DNA from: an uncultured Clostridia bacterium
Lineage (GTDB): Bacteria; Bacillota; Clostridia; TANB77; CAG-508
DNA length: 64,000 nt
Assembly (NCBI GenBank): GCA_947632605.1
Contig: CANRPX010000001.1
Location: forward strand, 198,416-262,415
Direction: 5' to 3'
Shown here: one piece after another, positions 14,726-34,947 of the stretch
How positions within the stretch are numbered: position 1 is the first letter of the stretch
Layout of the letters: each line of letters begins with the position of its first letter
Made by a program: the position numbers and the translations under genes
Notes under the pieces: model-generated
What the model was told of the DNA's origin: nothing
The model's database searches: none
What the model saw: the letters and a program-made list of their open reading frames with translations, nothing else

Positions 14726-15502
14726 ATGATAGATATATTAAAAGCTAAAAGTTATTTTAAAGAATATGTTTCAAATTATGATGTTAATGATCCAAGAATT
14801 AAATTAAAAATTATTCACATAAATCATGTTTCAGAAAATTCAAAACAAATTGCTAAATTTTTAAATTTACCAAAAGAAGAACAAGACTTAGCTGAGCTAA
14901 TAGGATTACTTCATGATATTGGAAGATTTGAACAATTAAAAATATATGGAACTTTTTCTGATAGAAATAGTATTAATCACGCAGAAAAAGGTGTTGAAAT
15001 ATTATTTAAAGATAATTTAATTAGAAATTTTATAGAAGATACAAGTTATGATAATATAATTTATAAAGCTATAAAAAATCACAATCCACTTAAAATTGAA
15101 GATGGACTATCTGAAGAAGAACTATTACATACAAAGATAATTAGAGATGCAGATAAATTAGATATTTATAGAGTTTTTCTTGATAGTAAATTAGAAGATT
15201 GTGTGCATTTAAAAACTGATGATGTATCAAAAGAAATCTTAAGTCCAGAATATTTTGAAGATTTTCCAAAACAAGAATTATTGTTATATGCAAATATAAA
15301 ATCAAATATGGATTTTATGGTGGCTTGTCTATCATATATATATGATTTTAATTTTATAGATACATTAAAAATTGTTAAAGAAAAAGACTATATTACTAAG
15401 ATTATTAAAAAAATAGATGCAAAAGATAAATATACAAAAGAAAAATTGGATGAAATAAATGTTATTGCTATGGACTTTATAAATAAAAAAATAAATAATT
15501 AA
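14726..15502 (+). CDS. HD-domain phosphohydrolase-family protein inserted between rfbC and rfbB
   Basis: H...LLHDIGR metal-binding HD motif. About 258 aa. Confidence 0.65.
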   Translation: MIDILKAKSYFKEYVSNYDVNDPRIKLKIIHINHVSENSKQIAKFLNLPKEEQDLAELIGLLHDIGRFEQLKIYGTFSDRNSINHAEKGVEILFKDNLIRNFIEDTSYDNIIYKAIKNHNPLKIEDGLSEEELLHTKIIRDADKLDIYRVFLDSKLEDCVHLKTDDVSKEILSPEYFEDFPKQELLLYANIKSNMDFMVACLSYIYDFNFIDTLKIVKEKDYITKIIKKIDAKDKYTKEKLDEINVIAMDFINKKINN

Positions 15503-19520: not shown

Positions 19521-19769
19521 ATGCAAAGAGAAATAACAGTTGCTGAAATAAAGAAAACTTTAGATGAGGATGAAATTAATGATACAATTGTAGTAAAAAG
19601 AGAGAATAAATCTGATGTTGTTATAATGAATATAAATGATTATAAAAGAGTTATTGAATCTAAGTTTATATCAAGATTGAAAAAAGGAGAAGAACAAATA
19701 AAAAAAGGCGAAGTTACTGATGGAGATATAGTTTTTAAAAGAATGAGGAAAAAATATGGATACAAATGA
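19521..19769 (+). CDS. type II antitoxin (Phd/YefM or RelB-like)
   Basis: 82 aa. Overlaps the downstream RelE/ParE-like ORF by 14 nt. This size and gene order are typical. Confidence 0.55.
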   Translation: MQREITVAEIKKTLDEDEINDTIVVKRENKSDVVIMNINDYKRVIESKFISRLKKGEEQIKKGEVTDGDIVFKRMRKKYGYK

Positions 19770-20082
19770 AGAACTATACAAAATAATATTCACTAATGAT
19801 GCTATAAATGAAATGGAAAATGTTTTTAATTACATATCTGAAAAATTATATGCTCCAAAAGCTACAAAAAATTTAATGCTAGAAATAGATGAAAACATTA
19901 ATAATTTAAAATATATGCCAAGAAAATATAGAACTATAAAAAAATATGATGAATTAGATTTAGAATATAGAAGAATGATTATAAAAAAATATTGTATTAT
20001 TTATACTATAAATGAAAACGAGAAGAAAGTTTATATTACACATTTGTATCATAGTAAACAAGATTATTTTAATTTATTTTAA
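19756..20082 (+). CDS. type II toxin, RelE/ParE superfamily
   Basis: 108 aa, basic C-terminal half (RKYRTIKKY...YRRMIIKKY...ITHLYH), coupled to the upstream small ORF. Confidence 0.55.
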   Translation: MDTNEELYKIIFTNDAINEMENVFNYISEKLYAPKATKNLMLEIDENINNLKYMPRKYRTIKKYDELDLEYRRMIIKKYCIIYTINENEKKVYITHLYHSKQDYFNLF

Positions 20083-20105: not shown

Positions 20106-20139
20106 AAAAAAGCTAGAAATTATATTTCTAGCTTTTTTT
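20106..20139 (+). terminator. Rho-independent terminator
   Basis: AAAAAGCTAGAAAT-tat-ATTTCTAGCTT followed by T7. Confidence 0.75.
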
Positions 20140-20253
20140 ATAATGCAAAAAAACTTTCGTAAATTTTTTGTAAAATTACTATATTAACTTGAAGAAAATT
20201 AAAGAAAATGATAAAATATGAAAGATTTAATAGGTTAAAAAGAGGTATAAAAA

Positions 20254-22131
20254 TTGGAGAAAATTAAAAAACTTAGTAAATTTAGAAATGTAATTTTAAT
20301 TTTTTTAGATATATTGTGTATAGCCTTTGCGTATTATTCAGGAATAGTACTTATAAATAATGGTTCTCTTTTATTAGATACATATTATACTAAAAGATTT
20401 TTGAATACTTTATTAGTTTCAACAATTGTTTATCAATTTGTATTTCAAATAACTAGAAGATACAAAAACTTAATAAGATATGAAGATGGAAAGGATTATT
20501 TAATTTATTTTATTTTGTGTATTATATCTTCAATTATTGTAGCTATTGTAAGAAAAGTTTTTGATATTTTTATGGTTGAAACAACAAGACTTATTATTTT
20601 AGCAGGTATTTTTATTGCTATTTTAATGGTTTCTTATAGAGTAGTTTTAAGATATATTTTAGTAAATGATATTTTTAATAAGAATGTTAAGGTAAATAAA
20701 GAAGTTCAAAAAAATCTACTTATAATTGGAGCTGGAAATGCAGCTCATGAAATTATAAGAACAATACATTCTAATATGAAAGAAATTTACAATATTGTTG
20801 GAATAATAGATGATAATAAAAAAAGATTGAATTATAGTGTTTCAGGTGTAAAAATTATTGGAAACAGAAATGATATTGTTAGAATTTGTGAAGAAAATAA
20901 AATAGATTTAATTTTCTTTTCTATTGCTAATATTGATAATGAAAATAAAAAACAAATATTAAATATATGTCAACAAACAAGAGCAAAAGTTAGAATTTTG
21001 CCTGGAATGAAAGAAATAATTAGAAATAAAAAATTATTTGAAAATTTAAGAGATGTTGAAATAGAAGATATTTTAGGAAGAGATCCTGTAAAACTAGATA
21101 ATAATAATATTGAAAATTTAATAAAAGATAAAACAATATTAGTTACAGGAGCTGGCGGATCAATTGGTTCAGAACTTTGTAGACAAATAATGAAATATAA
21201 GCCAGAAAAATTAGTAATGTTAGATATTTATGAAAATAGCTTATATGATATAGAAATTGAACTAAAAACAAAATATCCTAAAGCAAAAATAGATGCTATC
21301 ATAGCAAGTGTTAGAGATAAAAAAAGATTAGAAGAAGTTTTTGAAAAGTATAATCCTTATTTAGTATTTCATGCAGCAGCACATAAACATGTTCCTTTAA
21401 TGGAAAATAGTCCATTAGAAGCAATAAAAAATAATATTTTTGGAACATATAATGTTACAAATGTAGCAGATAAATTTAAAGTAAAAAGATTTATTTTAAT
21501 TTCAACAGATAAAGCTGTAAATCCTACAAACATAATGGGTGCTACAAAGAGAATGTGCGAAATGATAGTTCAAGCTAAAAATAAAGTAAGTGAAACAGAG
21601 TTTGTAGCTGTTCGTTTTGGAAATGTTTTAGGAAGTAATGGTTCTGTTGTTCCACTATTTAAAAAACAAATTATGGATGGTGGGCCAGTTACTGTTACAC
21701 ATAAAGAAATAACAAGATTTTTTATGACTATTCCAGAAGCAGTAGAATTAATTCTTCAGGCCATTACTTATGCTGATGGTGGAGAAATATTTGTTTTAGA
21801 TATGGGAGAGCCAGTAAAAATTTATGATTTAGCAGTAAGTTTAATAAAGCTTTCAGGATATGTTCCAAATGAAGATATAGAAATTAAAATAACAGGCTTA
21901 AGACCTGGAGAAAAATTATATGAAGAACTTTTAATGGGAGAAGAGGGACTTCAAAAAACAGCTCATGACAAAATATTTGTTGCAGAACCAACAAATATAA
22001 CAATAGATGATATTGAGAAAAAATTAGAAAAATTAAATAATTTATTAAATAAAGAAAATGCAGATTTAGAAGATACAAAATTTGTTATGAAAGAAATTAT
22101 ACCTACATATCATGAAGAAAATAATAAATAA
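20254..22131 (+). CDS. membrane-anchored UDP-N-acetylglucosamine 4,6-dehydratase (CapD/PglF/WbpM family)
   Basis: Four N-terminal TM helices, two Rossmann motifs (IIGAGNAAHEI, VTGAGGSIGSEL) and the FHAAAHKHVPLME motif. Confidence 0.85.
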   Translation: MEKIKKLSKFRNVILIFLDILCIAFAYYSGIVLINNGSLLLDTYYTKRFLNTLLVSTIVYQFVFQITRRYKNLIRYEDGKDYLIYFILCIISSIIVAIVRKVFDIFMVETTRLIILAGIFIAILMVSYRVVLRYILVNDIFNKNVKVNKEVQKNLLIIGAGNAAHEIIRTIHSNMKEIYNIVGIIDDNKKRLNYSVSGVKIIGNRNDIVRICEENKIDLIFFSIANIDNENKKQILNICQQTRAKVRILPGMKEIIRNKKLFENLRDVEIEDILGRDPVKLDNNNIENLIKDKTILVTGAGGSIGSELCRQIMKYKPEKLVMLDIYENSLYDIEIELKTKYPKAKIDAIIASVRDKKRLEEVFEKYNPYLVFHAAAHKHVPLMENSPLEAIKNNIFGTYNVTNVADKFKVKRFILISTDKAVNPTNIMGATKRMCEMIVQAKNKVSETEFVAVRFGNVLGSNGSVVPLFKKQIMDGGPVTVTHKEITRFFMTIPEAVELILQAITYADGGEIFVLDMGEPVKIYDLAVSLIKLSGYVPNEDIEIKITGLRPGEKLYEELLMGEEGLQKTAHDKIFVAEPTNITIDDIEKKLEKLNNLLNKENADLEDTKFVMKEIIPTYHEENNK

Positions 22132-22144
22132 AGGAAGTATTAAA

Positions 22145-23269
22145 ATGGAAAGAATTTATTTAGCATCACCACACATGTCAAAAGAAAAATATGAAGAAAA
22201 GTTTGTTAAAGAAGCTTTTGATACAAACTGGTTATCAACAGTTGGAGAAAATTTAAATAAATTTGAAGAAAGTGTTAGAAACTATTTAGGAATAAAAGCA
22301 TCTGTTGGACTTTCTAGTGGAAGTGCAGCAATTCATTTAGGATTAAAAGCATTAGGAGTATCAAAAGATGATATAGTTTTTGTTTCAGACCTTACATTTT
22401 CTGCAAGTGTAAATCCAATTATATATGAGAATGCAACACCTGTTTTTATTGATTCAGATTATGAAACTTGGAATATGGATCCAAAAGCTTTAGAAAAAGC
22501 ATTTGAAAAATATCCTAATCCTAAGGCTGTAATTGTAGTTCACTTATATGGTAGAGCATCTAATATGGATGAAATTTGCAAAATATGTAAAGAACATAAT
22601 GTGCCAATTTTAGAAGATGCAGCAGAAGGATTAGGTTCAAAATATAAAGAAAAATTCTTAGGAACTTTTGGAAAATGTTCAGCACTTTCTTTTAATGGAA
22701 ATAAAATAATTACTACAACAGGTGGAGGAATGCTAGTATCAGATGATGAAGAATTAGTAAAAAAAGTAAAATTTTGGTCAACTCAAAGCAAAGATCCAGC
22801 AAGGTATTATCAACATTCAGAAATTGGATATAATTATAGAATGAGTAATGTTCTAGCTGGAATCGGTAGAGGACAAATGATGGTTTTAGAAGATAGAGTT
22901 GCTAAAAAAAGAGAAATTTTTGATACTTATAAAAATGCTTTTAAGGATATAGAAGATATAGAAATAACTGATGAAAAAGAATATGAAAGATCAAATCGTT
23001 GGCTTTCAACAATAACATTAAAAAAGAATTCAAAAGTAAAACCTTTAGATATAATAGAAAGATTAGAAAAAGAAAACATTGAATCAAGAATGGTTTGGAA
23101 ACCAATGCACTTGCAACCAATATTTGAAAAATATGATTTTATTACTTTACAAGATGAAGTAAGTGTTGGAGAAGATTTATTTACAAGAGGAGTATGTTTA
23201 CCATCAGATACAAAAATGACAAATGAAGATTTAGAAAGAGTTATAAATATTGTTAAAAGTTTATTTTAA
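22145..23269 (+). CDS. DegT/DnrJ/EryC1/StrS-family PLP sugar aminotransferase (PglE-like)
   Basis: Motifs SGSAAIHLGL, DLTFSASVNPI and the active-site SFNGNKIITTTGGGMLV lysine. The ATG at 22145 follows AAAGGAAG. Confidence 0.85.
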   Translation: MERIYLASPHMSKEKYEEKFVKEAFDTNWLSTVGENLNKFEESVRNYLGIKASVGLSSGSAAIHLGLKALGVSKDDIVFVSDLTFSASVNPIIYENATPVFIDSDYETWNMDPKALEKAFEKYPNPKAVIVVHLYGRASNMDEICKICKEHNVPILEDAAEGLGSKYKEKFLGTFGKCSALSFNGNKIITTTGGGMLVSDDEELVKKVKFWSTQSKDPARYYQHSEIGYNYRMSNVLAGIGRGQMMVLEDRVAKKREIFDTYKNAFKDIEDIEITDEKEYERSNRWLSTITLKKNSKVKPLDIIERLEKENIESRMVWKPMHLQPIFEKYDFITLQDEVSVGEDLFTRGVCLPSDTKMTNEDLERVINIVKSLF

Positions 23270-23280
23270 ATGGAGAAAAA

Positions 23281-23916
23281 ATGTATAAAAAATTTTTTAA
23301 AAGATTTTTAGACATAATTATTAGTTTAATAAGTTTAATTATTTTATCACCAGTAATGCTAATTGTAGCAATTTTAGTAAGAATAAAGCTTGGAAGCCCA
23401 GTAATTTTTAGACAAGAAAGACCTGGTAAAAATGAAAAAATATTTAAACTTTATAAATTTAGAAGTATGTCAGATAAAAAAGATGAAAATGGAAAATTAC
23501 TTCCAGATAGTGAGAGATTAACAAAATTTGGAAAAATATTAAGAAGTACAAGCTTAGATGAACTTCCAGAACTTGTAAATATTTTAAAAGGAGATATGAG
23601 CTTAATTGGACCAAGACCTCTTGCTGTTGCTTATTTACCTTATTATAATGAAAAAGAAAAGCATAGACATGATGTAAGACCAGGATTAACAGGACTTGCT
23701 CAAATAAATGGAAGAAATGCTTTAGACTGGGAAAAAAGATTTGAATATGATTTGGAATACGTAAACAATATTACTTTTATAAATGACTTAAAAATATTAT
23801 TTAAAACATTTTTTAAAGTTTTAAAAAGAGAAGATGTTGTAACTAGAGGAACAGGAAAAACAATAGATTTTGATGAATATAGGAGAAATAACTTAAATGA
23901 ATCAAAAAAAATATAA
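23281..23916 (+). CDS. undecaprenyl-phosphate sugar-1-phosphate transferase (PglC/WbaP C-terminal domain family), the initiating transferase
   Basis: Single N-terminal TM, KLYKFRSM, DELPEL and PRPL motifs. Confidence 0.85.
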   Translation: MYKKFFKRFLDIIISLISLIILSPVMLIVAILVRIKLGSPVIFRQERPGKNEKIFKLYKFRSMSDKKDENGKLLPDSERLTKFGKILRSTSLDELPELVNILKGDMSLIGPRPLAVAYLPYYNEKEKHRHDVRPGLTGLAQINGRNALDWEKRFEYDLEYVNNITFINDLKILFKTFFKVLKREDVVTRGTGKTIDFDEYRRNNLNESKKI

Positions 23917-24040
23917 CTTTTTCTATTTTCAATATTAACATATATGTGGTGGGTATTTTAACTATAATTATTGAAATAATACTTATAAAATTAATTAATA
24001 AAACAAAATTTGATAAATTAAAGAAAGGGTTAGCTCTAGA

Positions 24041-25306
24041 ATGAAAAAAAGAGTATTAGTATTAAATTGTGGAACTTTAGCTTCTACTGATATAAATATG
24101 TCTTTAAGATATAATAATGAGTTTGAAGTTTGGGGAGCATCAACTACTAAAAATCATGGAATATATGTGTATAAAAATTATATTGAAGATATTCCAAATA
24201 TGAATGATAGTAATTTTATAAAAGTTTTAAATCAAAAAATAAAAGATTATAATTTTAAATTTATTATTGCACCACATGAGGATTTAGCATTATTTTTACA
24301 AGAACATAAAAAAGAAATAAATGCAGTAATTGTATGCTCAAATTATGATACAGCTCTACTTTGTAGATATAAATCAAAAACTTATGCAAAAATGAAAGAA
24401 TATAATTTTATTCCAAAAACATATAAAAAAGAAGAAGTAAAAGAATTTCCAGTTTTTGTAAAAAAAGATACAGACCAAGGTGGAAGGCATGCACACAAAG
24501 TAGAAAATCAAAAAGAATTAGATTTATATGCTGAAGGCGAAGATATGATAATTTGTGAATATCTTCCAGGAGAAGAGGTAACAGTTGATTGCTTTACAAA
24601 TAAAAATAGAGAACTTCTATTTTGTAACCCAAGAGCAGCAGATAGAATGCTTGCTGGAATAGATGTTCATGCTAGAAGAATAGAGCTATCAAAAGAAATT
24701 AAATACATCGCTGATTCTTTAAATAAAGAAATAGAATTTAGAGGCTTTTGGTTTTTTCAAATAAAAAAAGATGTAAATGGAAAATATAAATTACTAGAAA
24801 TAAGCACAAGACTTCCAGGAGCTTTTAGTTTAAGTAGATGTTTAGATGTTAATTTACCACTTATGGCATTAAAAGATTTTGATGGACAAGATGTAAAATT
24901 AACTTTTAATGATATAAATATTGAAGCAGATAAGCAATTTTTTGGAAAATATTCTTTAGGACTAGAATATGATACAGTTTATATTGATTTTGAAACTTGT
25001 TTTGAGTCAAAAGAAAAAGTAGATACTTTTCTTATGATGTTTTTATATCAATGTGTAAATAAAAATATAAAAATAAATTTATTATTGCAAAGTGATAATT
25101 TAAAAGTTTTAGATAAAAACAAAACTTCAAGAAATTTATTTGATGAAATAATTGAAATTGAACGAAAAGATATTAAAAATATTTTAGAGGAAAAAAGTAT
25201 TTTAATATCTAATGATGAAAATTTAAAAAATGAAATAAGAGAAAAAAATAAATATAATTGTTTTAGTACATCAATAATTGAAAGCTTAATTGATTGGAGA
25301 GCATAA
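24041..25306 (+). CDS. ATP-grasp family ligase
   Basis: The central region (ICEYLPGEEVTVDCF..., LEISTRLPGA) follows the ATP-grasp fold pattern. About 421 aa. Confidence 0.6.
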   Translation: MKKRVLVLNCGTLASTDINMSLRYNNEFEVWGASTTKNHGIYVYKNYIEDIPNMNDSNFIKVLNQKIKDYNFKFIIAPHEDLALFLQEHKKEINAVIVCSNYDTALLCRYKSKTYAKMKEYNFIPKTYKKEEVKEFPVFVKKDTDQGGRHAHKVENQKELDLYAEGEDMIICEYLPGEEVTVDCFTNKNRELLFCNPRAADRMLAGIDVHARRIELSKEIKYIADSLNKEIEFRGFWFFQIKKDVNGKYKLLEISTRLPGAFSLSRCLDVNLPLMALKDFDGQDVKLTFNDINIEADKQFFGKYSLGLEYDTVYIDFETCFESKEKVDTFLMMFLYQCVNKNIKINLLLQSDNLKVLDKNKTSRNLFDEIIEIERKDIKNILEEKSILISNDENLKNEIREKNKYNCFSTSIIESLIDWRA

Positions 25307-26349
25307 AAATGGAAATTGGAAGTGAGTTTTGGAAATGTGAAGATGATTTAATTTCAAATAATACAGATTTTTGGAATCTTGGAGAAGATACAAAATTTGT
25401 GTTATCTGGAAGAACAGCAATATATTTTGTTTTACAAAATATATTGTTAAATCATGATATAAAAAAAGCTTATCTTCCAACTTATTGTTGCAATTCTATG
25501 ATTAAGCCTTTTATAGATTTGGGAATAGAAATAGAATATTATGATGTTTATTATAATAATGGATTAAAATATAATATAAATTTAGATGAAGATATTGATA
25601 TATTTTTTGCTATGAATTATTTTGGATATTCATCTACAAATATGGAAAATTATATTAAAAATTTTAAGGAAAAAGGTAAAATTATAATTGAAGATATAAC
25701 ACATAGTTTTTTTAGCTCAAAAAAATTTAGTGTATATTCAGATTATTTAGTAGGAAGTTTAAGAAAATGGTTTCCAGTTACAAGTGGAGGAATAGCTGTA
25801 AATAGAAAAACAAAATTTGAATTAAAATTAAATGATAATACAAATGAAAAAATAATTTCTTTAAGAAAAAAAGCAATGGAAAATAAATCTAAATTTATAA
25901 ATAATAATGAAGATTTAAAAGAAACTTTTTTAAATCAATATTCAGAAAGTGGTAAACTATTAGAAAACGATTATAAAAATTATAGTATAGATAATGATTC
26001 TTTAAAAATAATTATGGGAATAAATCTAGAAGAAATAATTTCAAGAAGAAAAGAAAATTCAAAAATTATATATGAAAAATTAAAAAACATATCTAATATG
26101 GAATTTTTAGAAGAATACAATGAAAATGATTGTTTATTATTTGTTCCGATAATTTTAGAACATAATTTAAGAAATGAATTAAGAAAATATTTAATAGAAA
26201 ATGAAGTTTATTTACCTGTACATTGGCCATTAGAAGAAAAATTAAATAATGTTTTTGAAAAAGAATTATCTTTAATTTGTGACCAAAGATATACAAAAGA
26301 ACAAATTTCAAAATATACTGATATGATAATCGATTTTTTAGAAAAATAA
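25294..26349 (+). CDS. DegT-like aminotransferase-fold protein (divergent)
   Basis: LSGRTAIYFVLQ / YLPTYCCNSMIKPF / GSLRKWFPVTSGGIAV resemble the DegT family blocks, including a candidate PLP lysine. Confidence 0.45.
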   Translation: MESIKMEIGSEFWKCEDDLISNNTDFWNLGEDTKFVLSGRTAIYFVLQNILLNHDIKKAYLPTYCCNSMIKPFIDLGIEIEYYDVYYNNGLKYNINLDEDIDIFFAMNYFGYSSTNMENYIKNFKEKGKIIIEDITHSFFSSKKFSVYSDYLVGSLRKWFPVTSGGIAVNRKTKFELKLNDNTNEKIISLRKKAMENKSKFINNNEDLKETFLNQYSESGKLLENDYKNYSIDNDSLKIIMGINLEEIISRRKENSKIIYEKLKNISNMEFLEEYNENDCLLFVPIILEHNLRNELRKYLIENEVYLPVHWPLEEKLNNVFEKELSLICDQRYTKEQISKYTDMIIDFLEK

Positions 26350-26351
26350 AT

Positions 26352-27344
26352 ATGGAGAGAAAAGTGAAAGATATATATTTTGATAAAAATTATGGAAAAT
26401 TATATGAAAAAGCTGATAATGGAAAAGCACAAATTTTTGAATTTGAAAATGAAGATGGAAAAATTTCTAATCAGTTTTTAATAAGAGAAATTCCAGAAAA
26501 AATAGATGGAAAAACATATTATGATTTAATTACACCTTATGGATATGGTGGACCAATTATTGAAAATTTAACTGGAAATAAAGAAAAATTAATAAATGAA
26601 TTTGAAAATGAATTTTCTAAATATGCAAAAGAAAATAATATTGTTAGTGAATTTGTAAGATTTCATCCAATAATAAAAAATTATGAAGATTTTGGAAAAA
26701 TGTATAATAGCATATATATGAGAAAAACTTTAATTACAAAACTTGATGAAGAAGATCCTATTCAAAATCAATTCAAAAAAAGTTGTAGAAAAAACATAAG
26801 ACAAGCATTAAATAAAGGAATTACTTATAAAGTAATTCCAGCACCAGATAATTTATCTAATTTTAAAGAAATTTATTTTTCTACAATGGATAGAAATAAT
26901 GCAACAGATTATTATTATTTTGACGATGAGTATTTTAATAATATTTTAAAATATTACAAAGAAAATGTAGTTTTAGTTCAAGCTATTTTTGAAGAAAAAA
27001 TAATAGCTGCTGGATTATATTTTGTATATAATGATGTAATTCATATACATTTGTCTGGCACTTTAACAGAATATCTTTATTTATCTCCTGCTTATATATT
27101 AAGATATGCAATTACATTATGGGGAATTGAAAATAAATATAAATTAATTCATCATGGTGGCGGAACATCTAATAGTGAGGAAAACAGTTTGTATTTATTT
27201 AAAAGAAATTTTGCTAAACTTTATGATGCAGATTTTTATATTGGTAAAAAAATTTGGAATGAAGAAATTTATAATAAATTGTGTGATATAAAAAATATAG
27301 ATAAAAACGAAAGTTTTTTCCCTGCATATAGAAAAAATAATTAA
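26352..27344 (+). CDS. FemAB-like (aminoacyl-tRNA-dependent peptidyl/aminoacyl transferase fold) GNAT-family protein
   Basis: About 330 aa. The C-terminal GNAT-like block (VVLVQAIFEEKIIAAGLYFVYNDVIHIHLSGT...LIHHGGG) is typical of Fem/MurM-like proteins found in EPS loci. Confidence 0.45.
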   Translation: MERKVKDIYFDKNYGKLYEKADNGKAQIFEFENEDGKISNQFLIREIPEKIDGKTYYDLITPYGYGGPIIENLTGNKEKLINEFENEFSKYAKENNIVSEFVRFHPIIKNYEDFGKMYNSIYMRKTLITKLDEEDPIQNQFKKSCRKNIRQALNKGITYKVIPAPDNLSNFKEIYFSTMDRNNATDYYYFDDEYFNNILKYYKENVVLVQAIFEEKIIAAGLYFVYNDVIHIHLSGTLTEYLYLSPAYILRYAITLWGIENKYKLIHHGGGTSNSEENSLYLFKRNFAKLYDADFYIGKKIWNEEIYNKLCDIKNIDKNESFFPAYRKNN

Positions 27345-27391
27345 TCTTAAGATTATATTAAATCCTAAAATAAAAATGGAGACGAAGTATA

Positions 27392-28588
27392 ATGAAAAAA
27401 AAGATTTTAATAATTGCAAATTTTACAAGACTTCCCTGGGAACATGGAAATAGTAGATTTCCATACATAATAAATTTAATTAATAAAGAAAAATTTGATG
27501 TTGAACTTATAACTTCGAAATTTTCTCATGGTGAAAAAATACATAGAACAGGTGAAATTAAAGAAAATTTAGACTATAAAATTACATTAATAGATGAGCC
27601 TGGTTATAAAAAAAATGTGTCACTTAAAAGATTTTATAGTCATAGTAGGTTTGCTAAAAATGTAAAAAAATATTTAGAAACAATAGAAAAACCAGATATA
27701 ATTTATTCTGCAGTACCATCATTAGATGTAGCATATATTGCTGGAAAATTTGCAAAAGAAAACAATATAAGATTTATAATAGACATACAAGATTTATGGC
27801 CAGAGGCTTTTAAAATGGTATTTAATGTACCAATAATAAGCAATATTATTTTTTATCCAATGACAAAAAAAGCAAACAAAATATATAAAATGGCAGATGA
27901 CATAGTTGCAGTTTCAAATACTTATGCTGATAGAGCAGGTTTAGTAAATAAAACATATAAAAATAAAATAAGTGTATTTTTAGGAACAGACTTAGAAAAT
28001 TTTGATAAATTTAAAGAAGAAAATAAAAATGATAAATTTGATGATGTACTAAGAATAGCTTATGTTGGAACTCTAGGTCATAGTTATGATTTAAAATGTG
28101 TAATAGACAGCATAAAGATTTTACAAGAAAGAAATATAAAAAATATATTATTAGTTGTAATGGGTAAAGGACCTTTAAGAGCTGAATTTGAATCTTATGC
28201 TAAAGAAAAAAATGTTAATGCTGAATTTGTAGGCTATTTAAATTATGAAGAAATGGTAGGTAGACTTTGCTCTTGTGATATAGCAGTAAACCCAATAACA
28301 AAAGGGGCTGCTCAGAGTATTATCAATAAAGTTGCAGATTATGCAGCAGCAGGACTTCCAGTTATAAGTACTCAAGAATCAAAAGAATATAGAAAATTAG
28401 TTGATGATTATCAAATTGGTTTTAATGTAGAAAATGGAAATGCTGAAGAGATAGCAAACAAAATTGAGATCCTTCAAAATGATAAAGAATTAAGAGAAAG
28501 ATTAGGATTAAATAATAGAAAATTAGCAGAAGAGAAGTTTGATAGAAAAGAAACTTATTTAGAAATTAAAAATTTAATAGAAAATTAA
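27392..28588 (+). CDS. GT4 (GT-B) glycosyltransferase
   Basis: The C-terminal E-x7-E region (VADYAAAGLPVISTQ...) and the length are typical of GT4. Confidence 0.75.
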   Translation: MKKKILIIANFTRLPWEHGNSRFPYIINLINKEKFDVELITSKFSHGEKIHRTGEIKENLDYKITLIDEPGYKKNVSLKRFYSHSRFAKNVKKYLETIEKPDIIYSAVPSLDVAYIAGKFAKENNIRFIIDIQDLWPEAFKMVFNVPIISNIIFYPMTKKANKIYKMADDIVAVSNTYADRAGLVNKTYKNKISVFLGTDLENFDKFKEENKNDKFDDVLRIAYVGTLGHSYDLKCVIDSIKILQERNIKNILLVVMGKGPLRAEFESYAKEKNVNAEFVGYLNYEEMVGRLCSCDIAVNPITKGAAQSIINKVADYAAAGLPVISTQESKEYRKLVDDYQIGFNVENGNAEEIANKIEILQNDKELRERLGLNNRKLAEEKFDRKETYLEIKNLIEN

Positions 28589-28599
28589 AAGGGATAAAT

Positions 28600-29844
28600 A
28601 TGAATTTTATAAAAAAATACAAAAGTTTTTTATCTGATATGATTTTAAATATGATAGGGTTTGGAATATATATTGTTTCACAACAAATTTTATTACTTCC
28701 AATACTTGCAAAAATGGTAAATGATGATATATATTCTAGCATAGTTTTATACATATCAATTTTAAATGTTGTGTGCAATGTAACAGGTGGAGAACTTGGA
28801 AATGTTAGATTAGTTAGAGATAGTGAATATAAAGAAAAAAATTTAATTGGTGATTTTACTAGAATATTATTAATGCTTTCAACAGTAATAATAATATTTG
28901 TTTTTCCAGTTTTAATTTTGTTAAAATATAGTATACTTGGAAGCATTATTTTTACAATAACTATTTTATTGGCCAATATAAGACTTTATGCTACTTGTTT
29001 TTACAGATTAGAGAAAAAGTTTAATAAAGTAATTTGGCAAAATGTTTGTTATTTAATTGGAATTATTATCAGTTTAATTTTATTTAAATTATTTGGAAAC
29101 ATTTATTTATTGTTATTTATTCCTGAATTAATTTCAAGTATATATGCATTAAAAAATTCTGATATTTTGAGAATGAAATTAAAAAAGACAATTGAAATGA
29201 TAAATACAATAAAAAAATTTTTTCAACTTGGATTTGTATCTTTACTTACAAACTTAATGAATTATTTTGATAAATTTTTAATATATCCAATGTTTGGAGC
29301 AACATCAGTTGCAATATATTATGCAGTAAATTCAATGTCTAAAATTGCAAGTTTAATAACAAACCCAATGTCTAGTGTTATTTTATCTTGGGTTTCAAAT
29401 ACAAATGAAAAAGATAAGAAAAATAAAATTTTAAAAATGACTTTAATTTCAAATATACCAGTATTATTAATTGTAACATTACTTACAATACCATTAACAT
29501 ATATAGCACTTAAAATATTATATAGTCAGTATATGGAAAGTGCTTTAAATTTAATTATTCCAATAGCAGTTACAACAGCTTTTGGAACTGCTGCAACACT
29601 TGTTAAATCTGTATTATTAAAGTATAGTAATACTAATAAATTAGTATTTACTTACATATTATATTTTACAATTTTTATAATTTTAGGATACTTTTTAAGT
29701 AAATTTAATGGATTAGTTGGATTTACTACAGCAAATTTAATCTCTAAAATTATTTTATGGCTTTCTTTTATAGTATTACTGATAAAATCTAGAAAAGAAA
29801 TAAATAAGGAGCAAACAAATGAAAATATTAAACAAAATCTTTAA
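28600..29844 (+). CDS. wzx: Wzx-like oligosaccharide flippase (MOP superfamily)
   Basis: About 12 predicted TM over 414 aa. Adjacent to a Wzy-like gene. Confidence 0.5.
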   Translation: MNFIKKYKSFLSDMILNMIGFGIYIVSQQILLLPILAKMVNDDIYSSIVLYISILNVVCNVTGGELGNVRLVRDSEYKEKNLIGDFTRILLMLSTVIIIFVFPVLILLKYSILGSIIFTITILLANIRLYATCFYRLEKKFNKVIWQNVCYLIGIIISLILFKLFGNIYLLLFIPELISSIYALKNSDILRMKLKKTIEMINTIKKFFQLGFVSLLTNLMNYFDKFLIYPMFGATSVAIYYAVNSMSKIASLITNPMSSVILSWVSNTNEKDKKNKILKMTLISNIPVLLIVTLLTIPLTYIALKILYSQYMESALNLIIPIAVTTAFGTAATLVKSVLLKYSNTNKLVFTYILYFTIFIILGYFLSKFNGLVGFTTANLISKIILWLSFIVLLIKSRKEINKEQTNENIKQNL

Positions 29845-31144
29845 TAAAAGTAGATTACCAATTGTTTTATTTTTAATAGTGCTTATAAATTATTATCCAC
29901 TATTTATGAATAACTTTAATACTACAAAATCTGTTGCTGTTACTGTAAAACAAATGGGAATTGCTTTTGCAATTGAATGTATTCTTTTAGCACTATTTAT
30001 TTTTAACAACACAAAAATAACTAAAGAGACTAAAAGAAATATTGCTTTATTAAGTGTAGTTACTATAATTACTTTAATAATTCAAGTTAAAAACTTTTTT
30101 GATGGAAAATTTCAAATAATGGATTTAGCAAATATAACTTGCATAACATTAAATATAGCTATGCTTTTTATATGTGTTTTAAGTATTATTAAAGTAAAAC
30201 AAACATCCATATATCTTTTCTATATAGGAATAGTTTTAATTGGAATTCTTGCATGTGTTGTTAATTTTATAATATATTCTGAAAATATGCTTACAGTATT
30301 TGGAATTAATTCGGAAGCTCAATTAGTTAGTATAAAAAGTTTTTTTGCACATAGAAATCAATTTGCTTTCTTTTTATATTTTTCTATAGCTTCTACAGTT
30401 ATTTTATTTTTAAAGTCTCATAAAATAAGACCCAAAATAGTACTAAGTATTATATTTTTATTTTTCTTATTTAATTTAATAACAACAGCTTCAAGAACAG
30501 GATTATTATGTACAGGGATTTTTCTAACATTATTTTTTATTACTACTAATAAAATACATAAAAAAACAAAAATAATATTAGTTTTATTAGCAATTTTAAT
30601 TGCAATTTCATGTTGGGGAATGATAAAACTTCGTCTTCCAAATCTTCAAGAAAAAATAATAAAAGTTTTAGAAAACGTATTTATAAGAGAAAAATCAATA
30701 AAAACCTTTACTGGAAGAAGTAATTTTTGGAATTTAGCTTTCCAAACAATTTCAAAAAATCCAGTAAATATGTTATTTGGAATTGGTAGGTTTGTAGGTC
30801 TAGAATTATTAAAAGAAAATAATTATAGGGTTACTCAATTTCATAGCTTTTATGTAGAAGCTTTAGTAGCTGGTGGAATAATGGAATTACTTTATTTTTT
30901 ATACATATATATAACTGTGTTAAGAAAAATTCTAAAATCTAATTTAAGAACAAAATATAAAAGATTTTATATTTCACTTTATATTAGTTTTGCTATTTAT
31001 TGTGGTTTCGAAAGCATAGCAAGATTTTCAATTGGATGTGTAGACACAATGTGTTTAATTTTTGTGATTACTATTCCTCTATTGCATGCAAACAGCAAAC
31101 TTAATGTTAAAAAGTGGAAGAAAGTAGGAGAGATAAATAAATGA
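29819..31144 (+). CDS. wzy: O-antigen ligase / Wzy-type polymerase family membrane protein
   Basis: 10-12 TM with a larger periplasmic loop, and the ASRTGLL motif region typical of Wzy_C. Confidence 0.5.
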   Translation: MKILNKIFNKSRLPIVLFLIVLINYYPLFMNNFNTTKSVAVTVKQMGIAFAIECILLALFIFNNTKITKETKRNIALLSVVTIITLIIQVKNFFDGKFQIMDLANITCITLNIAMLFICVLSIIKVKQTSIYLFYIGIVLIGILACVVNFIIYSENMLTVFGINSEAQLVSIKSFFAHRNQFAFFLYFSIASTVILFLKSHKIRPKIVLSIIFLFFLFNLITTASRTGLLCTGIFLTLFFITTNKIHKKTKIILVLLAILIAISCWGMIKLRLPNLQEKIIKVLENVFIREKSIKTFTGRSNFWNLAFQTISKNPVNMLFGIGRFVGLELLKENNYRVTQFHSFYVEALVAGGIMELLYFLYIYITVLRKILKSNLRTKYKRFYISLYISFAIYCGFESIARFSIGCVDTMCLIFVITIPLLHANSKLNVKKWKKVGEINK

Positions 31145-32187
31145 TTTTAAAATGTATAATGACTTTAATTATATTTGTTATAGCCCCTTTTTTACTAGGA
31201 TTATTAATAACAAATTTTCTAAAAAAAGAAAAGTATAATTTATTATTTGCGATATTAATAGGTTATTTAGTAGAATTTGCTATATGTGAATTAATTTCTG
31301 TTCCAATGATTTTTATGGGAAAAAATTTTATTTTTCTATTTAAAACTTATGTAATTATAGTTGGAATTTTAATGATTATATCAATAATTATAAACAGAAA
31401 TAATTTTAAAGAAATATTTTATGCTACAATAAAAGGCTTTAAAAATTTACCTAAAATATTAAGTGCAGTTTGCATAATATTAATTGCTTTTCAAATTTAT
31501 ATGTTTGTAGCTTACACACATATAGATGATGATGATGCTTTTTATATTGGTTCTATTACAACAACTTTGCAAACAAATTCATTATATAAATATTCTCCAA
31601 CTACAGGATCAACTTCAGGAGAGCATTTGGACTTAAGATACAGATTAGCTCCATTTCCTTTACTTATGACAATAGTTTCAAAGTTAATTAATATGCATCC
31701 AGATATAGTTTCACATATTGTTTTTCCAATTTTTATATTACCAGTAATATACACTGTATATTATCTTTTAGCAAAAAAAATTTTTAATGAAGATATAAAA
31801 TCATCAATAATTTTTGTAATAATAATTAATATTTTAAATATATTTAGTGGATATTCAAATAGAACTCCTGGAGCTTTCTTACTTTTCCGTATATGGCAGG
31901 GAAAAGCACTACTTTGTAACTTGATATTACCAGCAATTTGGTTAGTTGTTTTAAAAGCTAGTGAAAATAATTACAATTTGGTATATTGTATTATATTAAT
32001 AATATTAAACACAGCTGGAAATCTTACAACAACAATGGCAATTGGATTATCACCAATTGTATTAGTAAGTTTAGTATTTGTACTTGAATTTGTAAACTTT
32101 AAACCTAAAAAATTTATTACAAATATGATTAAAAGTGTAATATGTTGTTTACCAAGTATAGTTTATGGTTTAATTTATTTTTTATAG
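31141..32187 (+). CDS. polytopic membrane protein, unknown (possible second polymerase/acyltransferase)
   Basis: 348 aa and highly hydrophobic. Translationally coupled (ATGA overlap). Confidence 0.4.
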   Translation: MILKCIMTLIIFVIAPFLLGLLITNFLKKEKYNLLFAILIGYLVEFAICELISVPMIFMGKNFIFLFKTYVIIVGILMIISIIINRNNFKEIFYATIKGFKNLPKILSAVCIILIAFQIYMFVAYTHIDDDDAFYIGSITTTLQTNSLYKYSPTTGSTSGEHLDLRYRLAPFPLLMTIVSKLINMHPDIVSHIVFPIFILPVIYTVYYLLAKKIFNEDIKSSIIFVIIINILNIFSGYSNRTPGAFLLFRIWQGKALLCNLILPAIWLVVLKASENNYNLVYCIILIILNTAGNLTTTMAIGLSPIVLVSLVFVLEFVNFKPKKFITNMIKSVICCLPSIVYGLIYFL

Positions 32188-32209
32188 TTTAATAGTTTAA
32201 GGAGAAGAT

Positions 32210-32965
32210 ATGTTTCAAAATAATATAGAAATAATAAAAAATACCTTTGAAGAATACAAAGGTCAAGGAATGTATATAGCATTATTTTTGGTAGGAATAT
32301 TATATATTTTATTAAAAGAAAAAGATAAAAAAATGAAAATTTTATTTGTTTTTTATCCACTATTAACATTGTTGATAACACTAAATCCAATATTTAATAA
32401 ATTAATAGGACATATTTTTAAGAGTAGTACATATTGGAGAGTTTATTGGATAATTCCTTTAGGAATAGTCATAGCTTATGCATCAATTTTATTTATAAAA
32501 GAAAATCAAGAAAAAAGTAAAAAAGTATTATGTGCTTTAGGAATAGTTATAATAATTATGGCTAGTGGAAAACTAATTTATAATAATGCAAATTTTTATA
32601 AAACAGGAAATTTGTATAAATTACCAGATGAAAGCATACTTGTTGCACAATTAATAGGAGAAGATGATGCTGAATATAAGAAGGCAATTGTGCCAGAAAC
32701 ATTAGTTGCATATATTAGACAGATAGATGCAAGTATAGAGTTATTGTATAAAAGAGATCCAGAAGGAAAATATGATGAGAATCCTGCATGGAGAGAATTA
32801 AATTCGGGAAATGTAAGTGGCATAACAAAAATTGCAAAATCAAAAAAATGCAATTATATAGTTTTTAAAAAAGCAACAGTTTTAACTGAGAAAATGGAAG
32901 ATTACGGATTTGAAAAACTAAATGAAACACCAAATTATGCAATTTATAAATACATAGAACAATAA
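32210..32965 (+). CDS. membrane-anchored hypothetical protein (N-terminal TM helices plus a soluble domain)
   Basis: 251 aa. Two or three N-terminal TM segments. Confidence 0.4.
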   Translation: MFQNNIEIIKNTFEEYKGQGMYIALFLVGILYILLKEKDKKMKILFVFYPLLTLLITLNPIFNKLIGHIFKSSTYWRVYWIIPLGIVIAYASILFIKENQEKSKKVLCALGIVIIIMASGKLIYNNANFYKTGNLYKLPDESILVAQLIGEDDAEYKKAIVPETLVAYIRQIDASIELLYKRDPEGKYDENPAWRELNSGNVSGITKIAKSKKCNYIVFKKATVLTEKMEDYGFEKLNETPNYAIYKYIEQ

Positions 32966-32989: not shown

Positions 32990-33985
32990 ATGAAGATATT
33001 AGTAACAGGTGGGCTAGGTTTTATTGGTTCACATACTGTTGTAGAACTTGCAAAAGAAAATAATGAAGTAATTATTATAGATAATCTTTATAATAGTAAA
33101 ATAGATGTTTTAGAAAATTTAGAAAAAATTACTGGAAAAAATTTTAAGTTTTATGAATGTGATTTAAAAAATAAAGAAGAACTAGAAAAAGTTTTTAAAG
33201 AAAATGAAATTGATAGTGTAATACATTTTGCAGGATATAAAGCTGTTGGAGAATCAGTAAAAAAACCATTAATGTATTATTCAAATAATTTGGTAAGTAC
33301 AATGAATCTTTTAGAAATAATGGATAAATATGGTATTAAAAAATTTGTTTTTAGTTCATCTGCTACTGTTTATGGAAATCCTGGTATTGTTAAATATACT
33401 GAAGATTTAGGAAGAGGACAAGCAAGTAGTCCTTATGGAACAACAAAATGTATAATAGAAAAAATGTTAGAAGATTTATATTTTTCAGATAATACTTGGA
33501 ACATTAGTATTCTTAGATACTTTAATCCAGTAGGAGCACATGAATCAGGCTTAATAGGCGAAGAACCAAATGGAATTCCAAATAATTTAATGCCTTATAT
33601 TATGAAAGTAGCATCTGGAAAATTAGAAATGTTAAGTGTTTTTGGAAATGATTATCCAACACCTGATGGAACAGGAATAAGAGATTATATACATGTTGTT
33701 GACCTTGCAAAAGGACATGTAAAAGCATTAGAAAAGATGAAAGAAGGAGTAAATTATTACAATTTAGGTTCAGGAAAAGGGGTAAGTGTTTTAGAACTTG
33801 TAAATACATTTGAAAAAGTAAATAATGTAAAAGTAAATTATAAAGTTGTAGGTAGAAGAGATGGAGATTTAGCAGAATATTATGCTGATCCATCAAAGGC
33901 TTTGAACGAACTTAATTGGAAAACAGAAAAAACTCTAGAAGATATTTGTAGAGATTCTTGGAATTATGAAAAAAATAATAAATAA
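32990..33985 (+). CDS. galE: UDP-glucose 4-epimerase
   Basis: MKILVTGGLGFIGSH, YGTTK (YxxxK), about 332 aa. The ATG at 32990 is 11 nt after AGGAG. Confidence 0.9.
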   Translation: MKILVTGGLGFIGSHTVVELAKENNEVIIIDNLYNSKIDVLENLEKITGKNFKFYECDLKNKEELEKVFKENEIDSVIHFAGYKAVGESVKKPLMYYSNNLVSTMNLLEIMDKYGIKKFVFSSSATVYGNPGIVKYTEDLGRGQASSPYGTTKCIIEKMLEDLYFSDNTWNISILRYFNPVGAHESGLIGEEPNGIPNNLMPYIMKVASGKLEMLSVFGNDYPTPDGTGIRDYIHVVDLAKGHVKALEKMKEGVNYYNLGSGKGVSVLELVNTFEKVNNVKVNYKVVGRRDGDLAEYYADPSKALNELNWKTEKTLEDICRDSWNYEKNNK

Positions 33986-34008: not shown

Positions 34009-34041
34009 GGGCTTAAATATTTTGATATTTAAGCCTTTTTT
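34009..34041 (+). terminator. Rho-independent terminator
   Basis: GGGCTTAAATAT-tttg-ATATTTAAGCC followed by T6. Confidence 0.75.
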
Positions 34042-34935: not shown

Positions 34936-34947
34936 GGAGAAATTTAT

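Follow-up and report, generated by a model that had tools for sequence, protein, structure and literature searches.

The Pgl pathway of Campylobacter jejuni (PglF-PglE-PglD-PglC), which leads to UDP-diNAcBac, shares with the locus described here a contiguous set of a membrane-anchored 4,6-dehydratase, a PglE-type aminotransferase and a small monotopic phosphoglycosyl transferase (PGT). It differs in possessing PglD, a left-handed β-helix acetyltransferase that the present operon lacks; moreover, its glycan is transferred by an oligosaccharyltransferase, whereas a Wzx/Wzy-exported polymer is predicted here, and our locus carries three extra tailoring enzymes. In Neisseria, PglB is a PGT fused to an acetyltransferase and PglB2 is a PGT fused to an ATP-grasp domain, giving a glyceramido-acetamido-trideoxyhexose (PMC11130364). 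The same exchange of ATP-grasp for acetyltransferase, at the same pathway position, is seen in the family of loci to which ours belongs. The Neisseria product is a protein O-glycan, whereas here the host is Gram-positive, the product a polymer and the PGT and ATP-grasp protein are encoded by separate genes; a PGT–ATP-grasp fusion with the architecture of PglB2 was found in one relative (P0339), which is 69% identical to our ATP-grasp protein.

In Bacillus cereus, the ATP-grasp enzyme Pyl joins 2-oxoglutarate to UDP-4-amino-FucNAc, yielding UDP-yelosamine (PMC11626204, citing Hwang et al. 2014). As far as that source's account of the operon goes, this too is a Firmicute locus with a dehydratase, an aminotransferase (Pat), an ATP-grasp enzyme in place of an acetyltransferase and a small PGT, whereas the account mentions neither a Fem-like nor a second DegT-like partner, both of which are present here. 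Additionally, Pat is FucNAc4N-forming, whereas our PglE is of the gluco type. The Fem-like protein resembles FemX of Weissella viridescens and Orf11 of BD-12 biosynthesis, an amino-sugar aminoacylase using Gly-tRNA (PMC12945691), in being a double-GNAT protein of ∼330 residues with a conserved catalytic Lys preceded by Phe. The acceptor is UDP-linked for FemX and an amino-sugar amine for Orf11; unlike FemX, our protein is a non-equivalog that resides in a polysaccharide locus, and its N-terminal acceptor-binding domain does not align. Finally, DhpH of dehydrophos biosynthesis has a PLP domain fused to a Fem-like tRNA-dependent domain (PMC12945691). It parallels the Fem-like protein and the divergent DegT-fold protein of our locus (hereafter UNK), a putative PLP amine-forming enzyme paired with a Fem-type aminoacyl transferase, whereas it differs in its PLP family and phosphonate substrate, UNK and Fem being two genes of glycan loci. 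In DhpH, the PLP domain makes the amine and the Fem-like domain acylates it.

Organization of the operon

The window (the whole stretch of 64 000 nucleotides that was analysed) represents the ∼23% GC DNA of an uncultured gut Clostridia bacterium. Positions 20254–33985 constitute a single Wzx/Wzy-dependent surface-polysaccharide operon of 13.7 kb on the + strand (Table 1), delimited by a terminator after an upstream toxin–antitoxin pair and a second after galE, with tight or overlapping spacing in between. The front half (20254–27344) is devoted to sugar tailoring and priming, and its six genes are intact, contiguous, tightly packed and all on the + strand. In a profile scan of the window ORFs, none of the operon's products was a PglD-type acetyltransferase; the sole hexapeptide-repeat protein among the scanned or annotated window ORFs is the product of a GlmU-like gene at 9550.

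Table 1. Features of the surface-polysaccharide operon
Feature	Coordinates	Strand	Evidence
PglF-like membrane-anchored UDP-GlcNAc 4,6-dehydratase, 625 aa	20254..22131	+	Polysacc_synt_2 4.8e-127
PglE-like aminotransferase	22145..23269 (alternative start 22112)	+	DegT 1.6e-99; LegC family 379.7 bits
PglC-like small monotopic PGT, 211 aa	23281..23916	+	Bac_transf 1.1e-66
ATP-grasp carboxylate-amine ligase, 421 aa	24041..25306	+	ATPgrasp_Ter 8.7e-18
UNK, divergent DegT-fold PLP enzyme (predicted), 346 aa	25309..26349	+	AF2 fold; conserved D129/K153
FemX-like double-GNAT transferase, 326 aa	26364..27344 (ORF from 26352)	+	FemAB 8.6e-15
GT4 glycosyltransferase, predicted second-sugar addition	27392..28588	+	Glycos_transf_1 7.8e-23
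Wzx-like flippase, weak match	28600..29844	+	Polysacc_synt 2.6e-6, 27.5 bits (cut-off 28.2)
Wzy-type polymerase/O-antigen-ligase-like protein	29819..31144	+	Wzy_C 2.6e-11
DUF6077 membrane protein	31141..32187	+	PF19554 2.6e-91
251-aa membrane protein, no family	32210..32965	+	
GalE UDP-glucose 4-epimerase	32990..33985 (ORF from GTG 32978)	+	NCBIfam PRK10675 436.9 bits (cut-off 394), TIGR01179 433 bits
Intrinsic terminator closing the operon	34010..34041	+	GGCTTAAATAT...ATATTTAAGCC then T6

Identity of the module proteins

An earlier note on this DNA had described the PglF-, PglE- and PglC-like genes as contiguous, and the Pfam and PDB matches confirm this at the positions listed. The dehydratase, which initiates at a TTG codon preceded by the ribosome-binding site AAGAGG, has a CoA_binding_3/PglD_N region at its N-terminus and partial matches of the PseB/FnlA type. 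The top PDB matches of the aminotransferase are C. jejuni PglE (1o61, E 7e-96; 4ztc, E 4e-95), as against 2.5e-34 for PseC and 2.4e-24 for Spr1654; on these matches, it is a true PglE-type enzyme. The PGT aligns with the C-terminal catalytic domain of EPS_sugtrans.

The note's ATP-grasp, DegT-fold and FemAB-like assignments were also correct, the DegT fold, the most difficult of them, being recovered through the AF2 model and a profile match to WecE. The ATP-grasp protein carries an additional conserved C-terminal α/β domain; its AF2 model (pLDDT 90.7) has the ATP-grasp structure 2pn1 as its best Foldseek match, with PylC, biotin carboxylases and L-amino-acid ligases further down. UNK, whose ORF opens at 25294 ahead of the conserved start at 25309, has no sequence match in Pfam, NCBIfam or the PDB: it scores below the Pfam DegT threshold, PF01041 weakly matches 20 of 68 distant relatives, and an S-x-x-K spacing stands where the DegT motif has S-x4-K. 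All of the top Foldseek matches to its AF2 model (pLDDT 91.8) are DegT-type sugar aminotransferases (probability 1.0, TM ∼0.65), the family profile finds WecE at E 4.8e-5, and the PLP residues Asp129 (EDxTH) and Lys153 (SLRKW) are invariant across the 68 relatives. UNK belongs to a family for which there is no existing model and which is obligately paired with a Fem-like gene; we infer, from the model, that it is a divergent DegT-fold PLP enzyme.

The Fem-like protein has further matches to Acetyltransf_6 (5.3e-8) and FemAB_like, and its profile aligns with FemX (4ii9) at ∼1.2e-18. It keeps the catalytic Phe-Lys within the motif SLYLFK, the invariant Lys284 aligning with Lys305 of FemX (PMC12945691), and on this one conserved motif the enzyme is predicted to be aminoacyl-tRNA dependent. 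Its FemX equivalog score is 50.8 bits against a cut-off of 500.

Conservation across related loci

We compared 55 related loci, comprising 54 species representatives and the window. The PGT is present in 49 and PglE in 47, and in 46 UNK is directly followed by the Fem-like gene; PGT, UNK and Fem make up the conserved core, rather than the ATP-grasp/DegT-like/Fem trio that the note had treated as one unit. The gene order is not a matter of chance, since it recurs in dozens of species-level genomes. Cultured bacteria that carry such a module include Terribacillus saccharophilus, Virgibacillus kekensis and Anaerocolumna aminovalerica. UNK and Fem form a widespread pair, whose probable role is to attach amino acids from charged tRNA to the sugar. 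Further downstream, the GT4 gene is kept after Fem in 44 loci, the Wzx-like gene is syntenic in 20, and the DUF6077 gene travels with that for the 251-aa membrane protein, which matched nothing in Pfam, NCBIfam or the PDB, in 17.

The ATP-grasp protein, by contrast with the core, is an interchangeable accessory in a variable slot: it is present in 23 loci, a small PseH-like GNAT replaces it in 18 and other ligases do so elsewhere. Directly upstream of UNK are found the ATP-grasp gene (17 loci), the small GNAT (17), a PF12746 GNAT (5) or another ATP-grasp (4). The best NCBIfam match of the small GNAT, a weak one (2.3e-12; 47 bits, where the cut-off is 93), is to PseH, an amino-sugar 4-N-acetyltransferase.

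Proposed pathway

The reading that we favour, with a probability of about 0.5, is that the slot enzyme acylates the amine made by PglE, and that UNK and Fem constitute a second amine-making and acylating unit. On strong homology, the PglE-type enzyme would aminate C4, giving the bacillosamine precursor UDP-4-amino-4,6-dideoxy-GlcNAc, and the PglC-like PGT would place a sugar-1-phosphate on undecaprenyl phosphate; GT4 would supply the second sugar, after which Wzx would flip the unit and Wzy polymerize it. As there is no PglD, two modules with other amide-forming enzymes would close the sugar amines. In one, the ATP-grasp enzyme would form the acyl phosphate of a carboxylic acid (an amino, keto or hydroxy acid could serve) and ligate the acid to the 4-amine made by PglE, as in the reactions of B. 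cereus Pyl and Neisseria PglB2; in sister loci, the PseH-like GNAT would simply acetylate this amine. In the other, UNK would aminate a keto sugar linked to a nucleotide, and the FemX-like enzyme would acylate the new amine with an amino acid taken from one of the housekeeping aminoacyl-tRNAs. One module would provide the substrate of PglC and the other the donor of GT4, or both amides may lie on one residue. Two such modules would therefore yield a polymer with amino-acid or acyl amides on trideoxy-diamino hexoses, the most likely product being an N-acylated or N-aminoacylated 4-amino-4,6-dideoxy-HexNAc as the priming or an early sugar. Counting against this reading, two C4-type aminotransferases (PglE and UNK) on one dehydratase are unparsimonious.

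The most economical use of one dehydratase and PglE would be a single chain, a possible, albeit doubtful, alternative. PglE would make the sole sugar amine, Fem would aminoacylate it from aminoacyl-tRNA, and the slot enzyme would extend or cap the new α-amine, the ATP-grasp adding a second residue or the GNAT giving an N-acetyl-aminoacyl group; UNK would tailor the sugar-bound aminoacyl residue by L-to-D epimerization or transamination to an α-ketoacyl group. The contiguous ATP-grasp–UNK–Fem order agrees with this, as do the rigid UNK–Fem adjacency, which is expected if the two share an amino-acid moiety, and the small GNAT, an Acetyltransf_3 (RimJ/RimL family) protein against which RimI/J/L-type α-amine acetyltransferases score nearby. 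O-antigens are known to contain 4-amino sugars that bear N-acetyl-aminoacyl or D-aminoacyl amides. However, the characterized DegT-fold structural neighbours of UNK all use sugar or cyclitol carbonyls, not peptidyl amines. Moreover, PGT, UNK and Fem are retained in loci such as L031 (PglF, PglC, UNK, Fem) and L047 (Fem, PglC, UNK alone), which have no slot enzyme and no nearby PglE-like match at E ≤ 10, such that UNK can be the sole aminotransferase near the locus, PglE possibly being encoded elsewhere in the genome. PGT–UNK fusions (four independent 50%-identity clusters, and L054) suggest that UNK prepares the UDP-sugar of the PGT. Additionally, UNK is frameshifted in four loci, and Fem in two of these, yet the ATP-grasp gene is intact, which would be unexpected if it needed the Fem product and argues that it is independent of UNK and Fem, with the proviso that these are metagenome-assembled genomes in which assembly errors are possible.

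Were the ATP-grasp protein an orthologue of Pyl, it would place 2-oxoglutarate on the 4-amine, UNK would transaminate the 2-oxo group to a glutamyl amide and Fem would attach another amino acid at the α-amine so formed. This follows the gene order, provides a substrate for an otherwise redundant aminotransferase-fold protein, and has an exact precedent in Pat/Pyl beside a small PGT, as the operon is described in PMC11626204. It is unlikely, however, given that at least 25 loci have UNK and Fem but no ATP-grasp, the slot holding a GNAT or being empty; the substrate of UNK is therefore not generally an ATP-grasp product. We consider it more improbable still that ATP-grasp, UNK and Fem never touch the priming-sugar amine, leaving the 4-amine free in a zwitterionic polysaccharide, with the ATP-grasp amidating a uronic-acid carboxylate, like Cj1438 and TupA-type enzymes, and the Fem-like protein either building peptidoglycan cross-bridges or working as an acyl-CoA GNAT of the CelD/BioF2 type. 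The Acetyltransf_6 match would accord with such a role, more distant ATP-grasp homologues lie in loci with UDP-sugar 6-dehydrogenases (L060–L062), and free-amine AATGal polysaccharides are well known. Against this, the scanned ORFs of the window include no UDP-sugar 6-dehydrogenase, and there is thus no evident uronic-acid acceptor; the Fem-like protein retains the FemX catalytic Phe-Lys while scoring far below the FemX cut-off, its synteny with the PGT is near-universal, and fusions to the PGT exist.

Overall, the interpretation in the earlier note is partly supported. A stray origin of the ATP-grasp and Fem-like genes in purine or peptidoglycan metabolism, which it had named as the outcome that would overturn it, is contradicted both by scores far below the equivalog cut-offs (PurD E 0.003 for the ATP-grasp; NCBIfam) and by their synteny with a PGT and aminotransferase in ∼50 species. 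N-acylation of the sugar amine fits the absence of PglD, the GNAT/ATP-grasp swap and the experimentally established PglB2/GATDH, Pat/Pyl and Orf11 precedents; that the ATP-grasp ligates an amino acid is not required, since the known enzymes in this position add glycerate or 2-oxoglutarate. The acyl groups, the order of the steps and the exact reaction of the DegT-like protein are as we infer them here. The note had supposed the decoration to be unusual, but the module is not rare, and the UNK family alone comprises 1063 clusters at 50% identity (E ≤ 1e-30), being common in gut Clostridia and having members in Bacilli too.

The operon and its bacillosamine-type front end

The window, which has a GC content of ∼23%, matches uncultured Clostridia MAGs from rabbit and other gut sources; contigs in ENA carry copies identical to it, and one species representative has 95% identity. 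From ∼9.5 kb to ∼57.8 kb, it is given over almost entirely to cell-envelope glycan biosynthesis, encoded on the + strand in the following block order: rml/GT2 genes, a ParE/Phd-like toxin–antitoxin pair, a Wzx/Wzy-type operon (20254–33985), and an ABC-transporter (Wzm/Wzt) locus with giant multi-GT2 proteins. The toxin–antitoxin pair itself (a Phd/YefM-like antitoxin and a ParE toxin, 19521–20082) separates the rml/GT2 sub-locus from the operon and is shared by the identical ENA contigs; on its 3' side lies a terminator-like hairpin with a T-run (∼20108–20140). The operon starts at a TTG codon preceded by a ribosome-binding site and is closed by a clean terminator (34010–34041). A promoter scan showed no enrichment (131 matches versus 129.8 in shuffled sequence) and was discarded, because it performed no better than shuffled sequence.

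All six genes named in the earlier note were found, intact and contiguous (see table). They are followed, in order, by genes for a GT4 glycosyltransferase, a Wzx-like protein, Wzy, a DUF6077 membrane protein, a family-less membrane protein of 251 aa, and by galE. The DUF6077 protein and the 251-aa protein (31141–32965) also co-occur in 17 related loci.

Features of the six-gene segment, in window positions
Feature	Position	Strand	Evidence
PglF-like UDP-GlcNAc 4,6-dehydratase	20254–22131	+	Polysacc_synt_2, 4.8e-127; 625 aa; N-terminal membrane/CoA_binding_3 region
PglE-type C4 aminotransferase	22145–23269	+	PDB PglE 1o61/4ztc, E 7e-96 and 4e-95, full length
PglC-like small monotopic phosphoglycosyl transferase (PGT)	23281–23916	+	Bac_transf, 1.1e-66; 211 aa
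ATP-grasp ligase	24041–25306	+	Pfam ATPgrasp_Ter, ATP-grasp_3; 'carbamoyl-phosphate-synthase-like' models
UNK (divergent DegT-fold protein)	25309 (conserved start)–26349	+	AF2, Foldseek and family profile
Fem-like protein	26364–27344	+	PF02388, 54.9 bits (cut-off 24); 326–330 aa, double-GNAT size

Judged by their sequences, the PglF-like dehydratase and the PglC-like PGT are unambiguous. The aminotransferase scores lower against PseC (2.5e-34) and the AATGal enzyme Spr1654 (2.4e-24) than against the Campylobacter jejuni PglE structures (∼1e-95), and because the PglE match is so far ahead, the 'bacillosamine-type' label that the earlier note gave to this front end is a fair one. A Hexapep search found no PglD-type hexapeptide-repeat 4-N-acetyltransferase in 20254–33985; the sole Hexapep protein among the scanned window ORFs is the product of a GlmU-like gene (9550–10842). 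Likewise, no UDP-sugar 6-dehydrogenase is encoded by the operon or by any other scanned window ORF.

The ATP-grasp ligase

The AF2 model of the ligase (pLDDT 90.7) matches ATP-grasp enzymes in Foldseek with a probability of 1.0: the nearest is an uncharacterised ATP-grasp protein from Exiguobacterium (2pn1), followed by PylC, biotin carboxylases and L-amino-acid ligases. Residues Lys141, Lys142, Glu173, Gly177, Glu179, Glu253 and Arg257 are invariant, in keeping with an ATP-grasp fold with ATP/Mg-binding motifs. The ligase family has the genomic context of the Pyl/PglB2-type N-acylases, being near or fused to a PGT and a 4-aminotransferase, in the place of the acetyltransferase. The source annotations name it no more precisely than 'ATP-grasp domain-containing protein'. 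A role as a uronic-acid amidoligase was rejected, because the scanned window ORFs include no UDP-sugar dehydrogenase. The ligase also has an extra conserved C-terminal α/β domain (residues ∼300–421; invariant Asp316, Gln337, Ser390, Asp418 and Trp419), which is not covered by 2pn1 (308 aa), the closest solved ATP-grasp structure, and which may be an acceptor-binding domain.

UNK, a divergent DegT-fold protein

Sequence searches of Pfam, NCBIfam and the PDB returned no match for UNK, and its fold was resolved only through an AF2 model (pLDDT 91.8), Foldseek and a deeper profile. The top 34 Foldseek matches in the PDB are all DegT-family proteins (aminotransferase class V-fold), mostly nucleotide-sugar aminotransferases, with TM scores of ∼0.6–0.65 and 11–15% identity; the sugar aminotransferases, WecE, PglE, PseC, DesV and Spr1654 among them, are matched with a probability of 1.0, TM scores of ∼0.65 and 12–15% identity. 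In the match of the family profile to WecE (4.8e-5), the ED-x-x-H motif falls on the PLP-binding Asp, Glu128-Asp129-x-Thr-His132 of UNK being paired with VEDAAQ of WecE. Neither Asp129 nor Lys153, the putative Schiff-base Lys (within SLRKW, with SGG after it), varies among 68 representatives, each 32–49% identical to the window protein. Together, the structural matches, the profile alignment and the invariant Asp129/Lys153 pair bear out the divergent DegT fold that had been surmised for the fifth protein.

The window protein has no match to PF01041 at the gathering score, and 20 of the 68 representatives show weak matches to this model (best 1.6e-5); the Ser-to-Lys spacing, as read from the sequence, is S-x2-K versus the S-x4-K of the DegT family; and an hhalign comparison between the UNK profile and the PglE of the window reaches a probability of only 1.8%, with the ED motif aligned and the Lys misplaced. 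UNK belongs to a large family that has no profile model; it counts 1063 representative clusters (50% identity) at E<=1e-30, rising to 6542 when the threshold is relaxed to E<=1e-3, and no relative carries a name in the source annotations. For such a module, the 'unusual' in Clostridia of the earlier note is better put as common, albeit uncharacterised, in Bacillota.

The Fem-like transferase

The profile of the Fem-like protein matches FemX at 1.2e-18, with SLYLFK aligned on SLYVFK of FemX. In FemABX enzymes, the catalytic Lys (Lys305 in FemX, Lys329 in DhpH-C) is preceded by Phe (PMC12945691); here, Lys284, which aligns with Lys305, is invariant, and Phe283 is at least 90% conserved, across 23 sequences down to 29% identity. 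Against the peptidoglycan FemX equivalog NCBIfam NF047883, the protein scores only 50.8 bits, the cut-off being 500. On sequence grounds, it is a member of the FemABX family and not the cell-wall enzyme; the possibility that it is a stray peptidoglycan gene was rejected on the grounds of synteny and the low equivalog score. Neither the window nor 42 related loci yielded a dedicated tRNA gene (a doubtful call of 92 nt, in L037, was set aside), an absence that speaks neither for nor against tRNA use. The portion of the literature covered contains no characterised example of a FemAB protein with an ATP-grasp enzyme, bacillosamine or exopolysaccharide.

A conserved core with an interchangeable slot

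Homologues of UNK occur in 54 species-representative genomes, in which the loci were examined by ORF calling, clustering and mapping; all counts refer to loci (55, including the window). The genomes are mostly gut Clostridia MAGs, together with Terribacillus, Planococcus, Exiguobacterium, Virgibacillus, Bacillus piscicola, Mobilitalea, Anaerocolumna, Alkaliphilus and one Mycoplasmatota genome. Fem lies directly downstream of UNK in 46 of the 55 loci, and a PglC-like PGT (49 loci), PglE (47) and GT4 (44) are nearby. The position directly upstream of UNK is variable: it is occupied by the window-type ATP-grasp in 17/55 loci (the gene is somewhere in the locus in 23/55), by a GNAT of ∼175 aa in a further 17/55, by a PF12746 GNAT in 5/55, and by other ATP-grasp families in several. 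The ∼175-aa GNAT (Acetyltransf_3; best NCBIfam match PseH, 2.3e-12) takes the place of the ATP-grasp in 18 loci. In two loci, a gene for a CapK-like adenylating enzyme lies 3' of Fem.

At its smallest, in Planococcus (L047), the island consists of Fem, PGT and UNK only, amid unrelated genes. Locus L031 has PglF, PGT, UNK and Fem; a PglE-like sequence is absent from it even at E<=10, as is a slot enzyme. More distant ATP-grasp homologues (∼50% identity) again occur as PGT–ATP-grasp–(UNK)–Fem, preceded by a different amino-sugar cassette (DegT, UDP-sugar dehydrogenase and SDR). Gene fusions are also seen: PGT is fused to UNK in L054 (4565–6436) and in four independent 50%-identity clusters (P0430, P0444, P0446 and P0524), and to an ATP-grasp enzyme 69% identical to the window ligase in P0339, which shares the architecture of Neisseria PglB2.

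UNK is independently frameshifted in four loci, at different positions (∼10324 in L021, ∼10470 in L030 and L032, and ∼10480 in L033), and Fem is frameshifted in L030 and L032 (∼11290). The ATP-grasp gene is intact in all four, and all have an extra PF12746 GNAT between it and UNK; UNK frameshifts affect 4/6 loci with this GNAT versus 0/17 ATP-grasp loci without it (Fisher p ∼0.002, computed by hand with relatedness ignored). This pattern suggests a joint loss of UNK and Fem, with an ATP-grasp that works independently of them, although the frameshifts could represent either real co-decay or indel errors in MAG assembly.

Two variant arrangements were observed. In L048, L049, L053, L057 and L059 (e.g. 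L059, 12285–15453), a second UNK paralogue lies directly 3' of a gene for a WbqC-like protein (PF08889), and a PIG-L-family de-N-acetylase is encoded close by; the arrangement resembles a third module of the 'amine plus acylation' kind. In L039 (8773–13593) and L041, three ATP-grasp genes surround a split UNK, Fem and PGT are both absent, and the ligases may there take the place of Fem.

Proposed pathway and alternatives

By homology, it is established that PglF and PglE would give UDP-4-amino-4,6-dideoxy-GlcNAc, that PGT would prime on undecaprenyl phosphate, and that GT4, Wzx and Wzy would complete the glycan. The missing acetyl step would be replaced by amide-forming enzymes. By analogy, we infer the logic of this replacement from three experimentally known systems, which include PglB/PglB2 and Orf11: Neisseria PglB is a PGT-acetyltransferase, whereas PglB2 is a PGT-ATP-grasp that makes a glyceramido sugar (PMC11130364), and Orf11 is a Fem-like enzyme that aminoacylates an amino sugar using Gly-tRNA (PMC12945691). 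In our preferred reading (probability about 0.5), there are two modules. In one, the amine made by PglE would be closed by the slot enzyme, namely, the ATP-grasp in the window and the PseH-like GNAT elsewhere; in the other, UNK would make an amine that Fem then acylates from aminoacyl-tRNA. UNK may transaminate a nucleotide-linked keto sugar; the context for this is given by the loci with PglF and PGT and no other aminotransferase, and by the PGT fusions.

The main rival, which we consider rather unlikely, envisages one chain built on the amine that PglE makes: Fem would take the first step, the slot enzyme would cap or lengthen its product, and UNK would modify the aminoacyl residue. A further scheme, in which yelosamine is formed and then transaminated, is elegant for the window locus; however, it cannot be general, and was rejected as such, because UNK and Fem persist in loci without any ATP-grasp.

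Each of the individual chemistries has a precedent, and the system is therefore not categorically new. The core of PGT, DegT-like protein and Fem is nonetheless widespread, with modular slot enzymes, and no description of it was found in the portion of the literature covered. Tentatively, and at somewhat less than even odds, UNK, Fem and the small PGT may form a widespread, hitherto unrecognised Bacillota system that diverts housekeeping aminoacyl-tRNAs to the priming of surface polysaccharides, where they would serve for the aminoacylation of amino sugars linked to a nucleotide or a lipid, with a new DegT-derived PLP family as obligate partner and interchangeable ATP-grasp and GNAT enzymes giving combinatorial, peptide-like N-acyl chains. 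If so, substrates of translation would feed directly into the decoration of capsule and cell-wall polysaccharides in many gut Firmicutes; to our knowledge, peptidoglycan, lipids and a few antibiotics are the only cases in which such use of aminoacyl-tRNAs has so far been demonstrated. Such a system would further provide a function for a PLP family of >1000 clusters, and for a large set of genes in glycan loci labelled 'FemAB-like', account for the closure of the 4-amine in bacillosamine pathways without PglD, and offer a modular rule by which N-acyl diversity of surface glycans could be read from sequence, acetyl, acid or aminoacyl groups being swapped at one slot. Such amide decorations alter charge and antigenicity, and therefore bear on how the immune system recognises commensals and on phage receptors. 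Since there are cultured carriers (Terribacillus, Virgibacillus, Planococcus, Anaerocolumna and Mobilitalea), the idea is directly testable.

Neighbouring glycan loci

Elsewhere in the glycan super-locus, DUF7657 and DUF7654 proteins occur twice, and rmlC and rmlB are separated by an inserted HD-domain gene (these features fall at 10900–12084, 14726–15502 and in the region 48326–50551). The downstream glycan locus contains three large ORFs (420, 727 and 612 aa; 51459–56873) without a Pfam match. The separate ABC-transporter-dependent locus (34079–45655) opens with the best promoter-like site of the region (11/12 matches, with TG), and encodes three giant multi-GT2 proteins (1194, 654 and 622 aa) as well as a NAGPA-type phosphodiester glycosidase (34948–35862).
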